In this document: positions 42,616-45,600 of the stretch, piece by piece
Layout of the letters: each line of letters starts with the position of its first letter
How positions within the stretch are numbered: position 1 is the first letter of the stretch
Assembly: GCA_000165345.1 (NCBI GenBank)
Contig: CM000433.1
Span: forward strand, 992,001 to 1,056,000
Length of the DNA: 64,000 nucleotides
Reading direction: 5' to 3'
Notes under the pieces: generated by a model
Seen by the model: only the letters and a program-made list of their open reading frames with translations
Databases searched by the model: none
What the model was told of the DNA's origin: nothing
Made by a program: the position numbers and the translations under genes

Positions 42616-45600
42616 TTAAATATTTAATAGAATTACTCTTGATAGAATCATCAATATTATGATGATCATGACTATGATTATGATCACGAATATGATCATG
42701 ATCACGATCACGATCACACGATCACGATCACAACCATGATCCAAATCATGATCTTTAAATTCAGACTCTTCTTCAATAATATTTCTTGGCTTTGAAAGAC
42801 TTTTTAATTCAATAACTGATTTATTATTGTAGTAATTATTACCCAATTTTATATCTTCATAATAGTTTCTAAAGTTGGATGATAAATTATTAGTATCTTT
42901 CTTATTATTATCACCAAATCCATAATAATAGTTATAATATGACATTAAAGCCTCAAGAATGCTTGGTTTAATATTAATTAAAACAGCTTTTGAAAATGTG
43001 GAATGAAGATATTTTCTATGTGATTTCTTGAAAGGCTTAACATATGGATCATAAAGAATTAAATGATCATAAAAGTAATATACTGAAAATATACATTTCT
43101 CTAAAATTGGTTCCCAAATTTGATGATTAATATCCAATATACTTATCTTCACATTTGCATCCTTAATTGTATGATTTGTTTTTATTGGTATTATTTCAAT
43201 TCTCCATTCAGGTATTGAAATCTCGAAATTTAACACTGGAAGATATCCTAATTCTTCTCTATTATAATAAAAATCATGGCAATTTCTTCTTCCTCCTCTT
43301 TTTCTTCTCCCTTCTCCCTTTATTCCTTCTTCTTCTTCTTCTTCCTCTTCTCCTCCACCTCCTCCTCCTTCTCCTTCATTGTAATCACTTATTAAATTGA
43401 TACTAAACTTATTTAAACTTATCTTTAAATCATAAATTCTACGAATTGGAGGAGGACCTAAAGTCTTAATTCTTGATTTATTCTCCTCAAAATCATCCTC
43501 TGATTCTTGTTTAACTAAGTCTTTCTCATCTTGATCAGATATTAAATCACTTTTTAGTGTTGAAGTATATAAAGGAGAAATTGTTGGACCATCTGAAAAT
43601 AAATTCTTTGCAATTTCCAATAAAATTGATAATAATGGAGGAGAAATTGAAATATTTAAATCATCAACTTTAATTAAAAGTATAAGTTCACTTAATGATA
43701 TTAAAGTTGTATATATATCTGGAATATCTTTTATATTACTTAAATATCTACCACTTATTAATATATTAAATGATTCTGCTATAATAATTTTCTTATAATC
43801 ATTTGAAATTCTTGGTATTTCATAAGTCATTGGTATATATAATAATTGATTTTTATCCATATTAATTATTGGTTTTAATAAACTATTTGAAAATGTATTT
43901 AAATTAATCAATTTTGACTTTGAAATTTGTAATTCTTCTCCTTTTTTATTCAATTCATTATTCTCAATTTCTGTAAAATATACCAAACTATTTAAAAGAT
44001 TTAAACTTTTTATTATTGTCTCATTATTATAAGTTGTTATACTACAATCAATATTAGTTTCCCATATAAGTATTAATTTATCATGAAATTTTTCAAGATT
44101 TTCAATATAATCTAGTATTCTTTTTTGAGGATGACTTGTAAATCCAAAAATACCATTTTCGATTTCTAACTTGAATTCAAATTTAAAAAATGACTTTTTA
44201 TTAATTTCATTCAATAATAATTCAAATTCTTGTATAACATTTTCTTTATTCTCCCTAAAAATTCGACTTGTTGATGATTCTGAAGTCTTAAATTCCATCT
44301 TTGTTAAAGAAATATTATTATTGGTATTACTATTATTATTATTATTATTATTATTATTATTATTATTATTATTACTATTAGTACTATTACTATTAGTACT
44401 ATTACCATTGCTATTCTTACAATTACTATTATCTCTTGAATCATAATGATCCAATTTTTCTGTAGAATTCCCAAAATGACTTGAATTTAAAGTAATAGAA
44501 TGATCTTCACTAACCACCAATTTAGAAAATGCTGAAGATCTCCAACTATGAGATAAATAATAATAGAAATCAATAATACAATTAAATCCAAAATATGCTC
44601 GAGGTTTATAAGCTTTAAGTAAAATATGACTTCCAAATTTATTTGAAATCTGACAAACAAATTGTATTGAACATTTTTCTTTCTTAAGATTATCATTCAC
44701 TTGATCCACAGTCTCTTTCATTAAATTACAACCATTATTGCTATTATTATTACTATTATTATTAAAGCCATACATTCCTGAATCATTCAATTTTAAAGTT
44801 TCATTACATAATACATTACCTAATGTAAATCCATGTATTATTCTTCTAAATCTTAAATTACTTGTTAAACGAATATCATCAAATTGATACTTTTTAGAAG
44901 TTATTGTAATACTTGTAAAATTATCATCATTTTCTCCAATATTTAATATTCTTGATCTTATTTCACAATCTATTAGTTTTATTAATAACAAAGGAAGAGA
45001 AGTACTTGTTAAACCATGATCTTTTGAATAATTTACATGTGCAAAAGATGTTTCTAAAGATAAACTTGGTAATCTTACATTAACTAATATATTTCTTTTT
45101 CCTGTTGTTTTTTTAATTAAAATATTATCATTATTATTTTGTTGATCTGGAATATAAGTTATTTTAGAATCTCTTTTTTGATGACTTCTATTTAATATGT
45201 TCTCTGCAATAACATTAAAAATAAATGTAAGTTGTTGACGAGATAAAGTAAGTTCCAAAGGAGACATATTAACATTTAATAAAGTAATTTTATCATTTAA
45301 ATCATGATTTGAATAATCCATAGTCTTTAAATCACATAATATTCTTGGAATATTGATATCTGGAAAACTATTAGTTGAAGAAAATTCAATTAATGCATTC
45401 AAATCTGGTAAAACTCTTCCTTGAATTGATTCTGAACCTCCATCTTTTTCAATAATATCCAAAACTCCTTTGTTAATAATAAATGTACTAGTCCATATCC
45501 TTTCATTAGAAGATTCAAAAAATGATTTCTTTTGATTTTTGAATTCTTCTTGTTTATTATCAGAAATATTATAAAATGTTTTAATTAATTTTGAATTATC

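Follow-up and report, generated by a model that had tools for sequence, protein, structure and literature searches.

A 2-nt insertion, very probably an assembly artefact, in a coding hexanucleotide repeat splits a VPS13-like gene in a Cryptosporidium parvum assembly

Organization of the locus

The window, i.e., the whole stretch of DNA analysed here, comprises 64,000 nucleotides (GCA_000165345.1, contig CM000433.1, positions 992,001 to 1,056,000 of the forward strand). It has a GC content of 25% and contains 225 Ns, mostly single Ns among bases, and one 100-N gap. The gene considered here is oriented along the minus strand and is distributed over three open reading frames (ORFs), with two frame breaks between them. 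In window coordinates, its features are:

52048..50849, minus strand: N-terminal fragment of the VPS13-like gene, an ORF of 399 codons with an ATG start and a chorein / VPS13_N domain
50793..50881, no strand assigned: N-peppered low-quality patch, which breaks the frame of the VPS13-like gene a second time (compared with CP044418.1, a G is added at 50854; the ORF is unbroken there in IOWA-ATCC)
50886..42616, minus strand: middle fragment of the VPS13-like gene, an ORF of 2756 codons
42682..42731, minus strand: hexanucleotide coding repeat GATCGT/GATCAT (Asp-Arg/Asp-His), a variable protein linker (Tandem Repeats Finder: period 6, 8 copies)
42718..42719, minus strand: extra, frame-shifting dinucleotide, GT on the coding strand and AC on the plus strand
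42616..42717, minus strand: out-of-frame tail of the upstream ORF (VIVIVIMIIF...LLNI*, from the translation), with a stop, very probably artefactual, at 42616-42618
42613..35762, minus strand: C-terminal fragment of the VPS13-like gene, an ORF of 2283 codons that holds the VPS13A/VPS13C-like C-terminal region

The N-terminal ORF overlaps the middle ORF within the N-peppered stretch 50793-50881. At the other break, the middle ORF reads ...DHGCDRDR and thereafter runs out of frame as VIVIVIMIIFVIIIIVMIIIILMILSRVILLNI*; the C-terminal ORF begins with LTGFPYYCFVIK, and its frame is open further upstream to ...SCDRDRDHDHIRDHNHSHDHHNIDDS. An earlier note on this DNA had claimed that the uncorrected upstream ORF ends in an out-of-frame reading and that removal of 42718-42719 fuses the two ORFs. 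Translation agrees on both points, as the 2756- and 2283-codon ORFs merge into a single stop-free frame of 5040 codons, and the junction translation given in the note (DRDRDRDRDHDH) is correct. Given that, by our own estimate, a stop codon is expected by chance about every 11 codons at 25% GC, two neighbouring open frames as long as 2756 and 2283 codons cannot be put down to chance.

Structure of the repeat

The plus strand at 42690-42731 reads ATAT GATCAT (GATCAC)3 AC (GATCAC)2, with the first three hexamers at 42700-42717, the AC at 42718-42719 and the last two hexamers at 42720-42731. The insertion of AC between three and two copies of GATCAC is thus exactly as had been described, to the base. 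The description of the tract as a (GATCAC)n His-Asp repeat holds for the presence of the repeat and of the break but not for the coding unit at the break, which is GATCGT (Asp-Arg) and is followed by GATCAT (Asp-His): the coding (minus) strand reads GAT CAT GGT TGT (GAT CGT)2 GT (GAT CGT)2 (GAT CAT)2 ATT CGT GAT CAT AAT CAT. The placement of the dinucleotide is ambiguous, as dropping any two adjacent bases of CACAC at 42715-42719 has an identical outcome.

Relationship to the VPS13 family

The N-terminal ORF (52048..50849) matches the Pfam family VPS13_N (PF12624) with E=1.3e-38 and 133 bits (cut-off 80) and is 96% identical to a C. hominis protein named 'N-terminal region of Chorein'. Searches of the 2724-aa and 2283-aa ORFs against Pfam found no family at E<=0.001 and nothing relevant even at E<=10; the models of the VPS13 middle repeats, VAB (SHR-BD) and VPS13_C/ATG_C are absent from both large ORFs at that threshold. 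Because both are silent in Pfam, the identity of the gene is drawn from the N-terminal ORF and from phmmer searches of the downstream ORF against the PDB. Similarity to the C-terminal region of human VPS13A (2.5e-7) lies within the last 1000 residues of this ORF. Further matches are to residues 3512-3614 of 3777 of VPS13C (9.5e-6) and, weakly, to the C-terminal end of ATG2A (1840-1919 of 1938, 0.08). The VPS13/ATG2-type similarity at the C-terminus is short (about 80-110 residues). Since the first fragment carries the chorein-N domain and the third the VPS13-like C-terminal region, the three ORFs (52048..50849, 50886..42616 and 42613..35762) are, as read from sequence, parts of one predicted protein.

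The protein shares with the VPS13 / chorein-N lipid-transfer family (VPS13A-D, ATG2) the VPS13_N domain at the N-terminus, the VPS13A/VPS13C-like C-terminal region and, more weakly, the ATG2A-like one, as well as its nature as a very long single polypeptide, here of about 5400 aa. It differs in being longer than the VPS13C chain in the PDB (3777 aa), with low-complexity inserts, and in that the Pfam middle repeats, VAB/SHR-BD and VPS13_C/ATG_C find no match in the large ORFs. Its orthologues carry the names 'Chorein N-terminal domain-containing protein', 'putative vacuolar protein sorting associated protein' and 'Autophagy-related protein 2'. Further VPS13-like genes occur on other chromosomes of C. 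parvum (PMC12446620). The designation as a VPS13 gene in the earlier note therefore stands as 'VPS13-like', in view of the PF12624 domain and the VPS13A/VPS13C C-terminal matches, but, given these further genes, assignment as the orthologue of a particular VPS13 is not justified. By family membership, the protein may function as a bulk lipid-transfer bridge.

Comparison with other C. parvum assemblies and C. hominis

Four chromosome-level C. parvum assemblies were chosen by an exact match to the neighbouring TSP1-domain protein (window 33381-35351): GCA_015245375.1/CP044418.1, GCA_035232765.1/CP141122.1, GCA_031892065.1/CP029784.1 and GCA_048859185.1/CM109965.1. The first is C. parvum IOWA-ATCC and the second CpBGF (PMC12179316). 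The coding unit is present as (GATCGT)4 in CP044418.1, CP029784.1 and CP141122.1 and as (GATCGT)6 in CM109965.1, and the extra GT is absent from all five other assemblies compared (the four chromosome-level C. parvum assemblies and C. hominis). Without 42718-42719, the window equals CP044418.1, CP029784.1 and CP141122.1 base for base; these are three independent assemblies, two of them of the same IOWA lineage. The minus-strand frame runs without stops across the site in 4/4 C. parvum assemblies. The gene in IOWA-ATCC extends as a single 5427-codon ORF from the ATG (window 52048) to the stop (window 35762), free of internal stops, and both window breaks, the N-patch and the GT, vanish in it. 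Over 21,971 bp compared with IOWA-ATCC, the window differs only in the N-patch at 31112-31157 and in the dinucleotide in the repeat.

The window DNA is ~97% identical to C. hominis JIBM01000070, in which the repeat is 38 nt shorter than in the window and 36 nt shorter than in the corrected sequence, and thus in frame. A C. hominis gene model of 4833 aa spans the break site, with the conserved blocks described below on both sides. Among the other sequences, every difference in length is divisible by 3 (+12 and -36 nt); only the window deviates by 2. The repeat varies in length in frame, as seen in the six copies of CM109965.1 (19248-19408 of the extracted record L005) and in the 36-nt shorter tract of C. 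hominis (L001, about 19290-19360). In its 6-nt unit and its whole-unit copy differences (x4 versus x6; 36 nt in C. hominis), the tract resembles coding microsatellites; the window differs in that its change of 2 nt is no whole unit and occurs in one draft assembly only. An ordinary repeat-slippage allele was considered and rejected, because a 2-nt change is not a product of slippage by a 6-nt unit. The Asp-Arg/Asp-His hexanucleotide repeat could serve as a small typing marker.

Conservation across Cryptosporidium

Orthologues were compared by means of exact-protein look-ups of the neighbours and an all-against-all HMMER search. Word-indexed protein searches with the corrected junction region, both unmasked and masked for low complexity, returned nothing, and a metagenome scan for the 5' flank of the repeat gave 0 matches. 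Queried with the first 1199 residues of the downstream ORF, an exhaustive HMMER search yielded five proteins. Three are single polypeptides that align across the junction, namely those of C. felis (5202 aa), C. bovis (5037 aa) and C. muris (4987 aa). A fourth, from C. canis, is a 2455-aa fragment that spans the junction, with conserved blocks on either side, and the remaining match has 1455 aa. The C. xiaoi protein (5040 aa) is a member of the C. bovis cluster, and those of C. andersoni (4986 aa) and C. serpentis (4995 aa) belong to the C. muris cluster; for these three, length and name were checked. The full-length proteins of C. felis, C. bovis and C. muris open with MLETI.QR.LGRYLEPYVYNLSRENLRLG, as does the N-terminal ORF of the window.

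In the alignment, the break is preceded by a conserved block (LYDPYVKP..KS.RKY.HSTFS...NIKPS) and followed by another (YLNLTG.PYYCF...NNCNSQIPLLR...SAP.D.D..RLKREF). Both blocks belong to one polypeptide in 6/6 other sequences aligned, with a poorly conserved linker between them. Among the sequences aligned, only the pair of C. parvum and C. hominis has the Asp/Arg/His repeat, which would constitute a variable, Asp/Arg/His-rich linker between the conserved blocks. Comparison with orthologues in related genomes, as the earlier note had proposed, thus shows a continuous frame in every Cryptosporidium species aligned across the site; a frame discontinuity conserved in relatives was not found in any of those compared.

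These comparisons bear on the idea that the cell itself bridges the break, either by a short intron over the repeat region or by programmed ribosomal frameshifting. Formally, the sequence offers room for splicing, as 31 GT..AG intervals of length 3n+2 within 42800-42560 restore the frame, for example 42636..42578, which begins with GTAATT. However, in the four assemblies that have no GT and a continuous ORF, the same intron or shift would throw the gene out of frame. In addition, C. hominis is in frame, the flanking blocks align as coding sequence in other species, and no relative needs a shift. A biological bridge of either kind is extremely unlikely.

Error profile of the window and origin of the dinucleotide

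Over 26.5 kb compared with CP044418.1, the window shows 16 non-N differences, mostly clustered at or near N-patches. N-patches of the window lie at 31119-31157, 50793-50881 and 60453-60881. Eight substitutions fall within the gene and all are private to the window, as IOWA-ATCC, CpBGF and C. hominis agree against it. Several of them resemble base-call shifts, with, e.g., CCAAGG instead of CCCAAG and AGAAGTTT instead of AGAAAGTT. Within about 3 kb of the repeat there is no N and no private substitution, the nearest being at 45866 and 45884, so nothing local marks the repeat as a region of low quality.

The 2004 reference of C. parvum IOWA II contained 18,558 ambiguous bases as well as gaps, and its relocations were flanked by gaps or Ns (PMC8744675). 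This legacy assembly and IOWA-ATCC are 99.93% identical, while only 143 variants separate two IOWA stocks (ATCC and BGF) (PMC8744675), and a difference private to the legacy assembly is therefore far likelier to be an error than a real variant. The window resembles the 2004 assembly with its published errors (Baptista et al., 2022, PMC8744675; Baptista et al., 2025, PMC12179316) in lineage, in its 99.9% identity to IOWA-ATCC, in its scattered Ns, private base calls and 100-N gap joining two chromosome records, and in the split or truncated gene models there. It comes from an error-prone draft assembly of IOWA-type C. parvum, very probably the legacy Sanger reference or a derivative of it. The site at 42718-42719 is itself not named in either paper, and among the frameshift variants listed for CpBGF reads versus the 2004 assembly no gene could be linked to this locus (PMC12179316). 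C. parvum read datasets are given as SRP255839 (Illumina), SRP307938 (ONT) and SRP504065 (Iso-Seq) (PMC12179316).

The GT (AC on the plus strand) at 42718-42719 is, judging from these sequence comparisons, very probably a sequencing or assembly artefact that splits one VPS13-like gene. This reading follows from the dinucleotide being private to one assembly and absent from assemblies of the same lineage, and we infer a technical cause rather than a private mutation of the sequenced stock. The GT may have arisen as a consensus, base-calling or cloning error within the hexanucleotide coding repeat. The earlier view of a sequencing slip in a simple coding repeat as the most likely cause is supported by the window-private dinucleotide, by the unbroken ORF elsewhere and by the errors that the window shows at other sites. 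The three ORFs would constitute, in the organism, one intron-less gene of about 5427 codons encoding a VPS13-like (chorein-N) protein. The feature carries no biological novelty, and the gene is intact in the organism.

The principal competitor, also named in the earlier note, is a genuine frameshift allele (GATCGTGATCGTGTGATCGT), i.e., a 2-bp tandem duplication of GT in the sequenced IOWA stock, fixed or segregating, that truncates the protein after about 3100 residues. The dinucleotide is really present in the window, with no N or other private difference within about 3 kb of the repeat, and laboratory-propagated IOWA stocks do show real indels, which make up 108 of the 143 variants between ATCC and BGF (PMC8744675). 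However, both independently sequenced assemblies of the IOWA lineage, and a third assembly, carry the in-frame four copies, and the other window-private differences include apparent base-call shifts. Moreover, the 2283 downstream codons are undamaged and the gene is conserved as a single polypeptide throughout the genus, which makes it unlikely that the parasite could afford to lose about 42% of the protein; a very recent mutation, however, would not yet show as decay in the downstream codons. Taken together, a genuine allele is improbable. In its more specific form, a duplication that is real in the IOWA stock, possibly in a subpopulation, would split a genus-conserved VPS13-like protein of about 5400 aa and be tolerated; its products would be an N-terminal portion of about 3100 aa and, perhaps, a C-terminal portion with an initiation of its own. 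This version is marginally less probable again.

Gene models on current reference records

In the gene tables of the long-read references CP044418.1 and CP141122.1, one 5427-codon ORF is covered by three models, with 389, 2691 and 2253 aa (479-1645, 1835-9908 and 10001-16762 in L014/L015, the extracts of CP044418.1 and CP141122.1). The single ORF occupies 479..16762 of L014, equivalent to 721772..738055 of CP044418.1 provided that the locus is in forward orientation on the record. The 389-aa model corresponds to window 52048..50882 (389 codons) and ends at the N-patch, the 2691-aa model to window 50691..42616 (ATG at 50691; 2691 codons and a stop, 8076 nt), and the 2253-aa model to window 42523..35762 (ATG at 42523; 2253 codons and a stop). 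On CP044418.1, the 2691-aa model spans 8074 nt, two fewer than the 8076 nt of the window and not a multiple of three, and contains no in-frame stop. Since the boundaries of the models coincide with the break points of the window while the DNA of the records is intact, the split models of IOWA-ATCC and CpBGF look inherited from an assembly with the defects of the window. The annotation of CpBGF was made by Liftoff from IOWA-ATCC (PMC12179316).

Taken at face value, the separate 2691-aa and 2253-aa products annotated on both records would speak for two truly separate, adjacent genes. However, on the IOWA-ATCC and CpBGF records, the 8074-nt model, out of step with the triplet frame and devoid of a stop, runs directly into the next one within a single ORF. 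Likewise, a single gene is annotated on CP029784.1 (5401 aa) and on CM109965.1 (5405 aa), and the orthologues in other species are single proteins. The chance that two genes exist here is negligible. With the break read as an artefact, users of the draft would take one protein of about 5400 aa for three, which has apparently already happened for IOWA-ATCC and CpBGF. Merging the models would put right the list of giant Cryptosporidium VPS13-like proteins; the value lies in annotation clean-up.

A neighbouring gene (window 27827-32577), upstream of the TSP1 gene, is split by the N-patch at 31112-31157 into ORFs 27827-31117 and 31231-32577. IOWA-ATCC has one ORF of 1582 codons there (4449-9197 of the extract L002), yet it is annotated as 1095 and 340 aa; CP029784.1 annotates the gene as 1582 aa. 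This split needs the same merging.

Other observations

The CpBGF record CP141122.1 (L004, 1-21971) shows 25 gap openings relative to the window, compared with 3 for IOWA-ATCC, and stop codons interrupt its version of the 1582-codon ORF, which points to indel errors left over from long-read sequencing in that assembly.

The 100-N gap, in the stretch 52290-52412 of the window, joins sequence of CP044418.1 (a 1.09 Mb record) to sequence of CP044422.1 (0.92 Mb, near one end), and the junction would be either a misjoin or the result of concatenated contigs. The 23 nt before the gap (GGGTACCGAGTCGATATTCGAAT) give no alignment to the chromosome and resemble a cloning-vector polylinker. Beyond the gap, a region at 53247-54522 with a 262-aa ORF (53448-54236, minus strand) is 83% identical to a neighbouring paralogue on CP044422.1 (a 302-aa gene, L012), which indicates a probable tandem gene pair near the end of the CP044422.1 chromosome.

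The large N-peppered patch at 60453-60881 contains about 25 single-base insertions relative to CP044422.1 and lies just upstream of a minus-strand ORF (60933-61943) that is annotated in IOWA-ATCC as an AsnA-family gene. Finally, a small ORF at 62875-63300 (141 aa) has a signal-peptide-like start and three tandem units of ~34 aa (NESK.SHDGITPCGN.TPNCVGGYYITDNQSDT), the DNA copies of which are about 94-96% identical.
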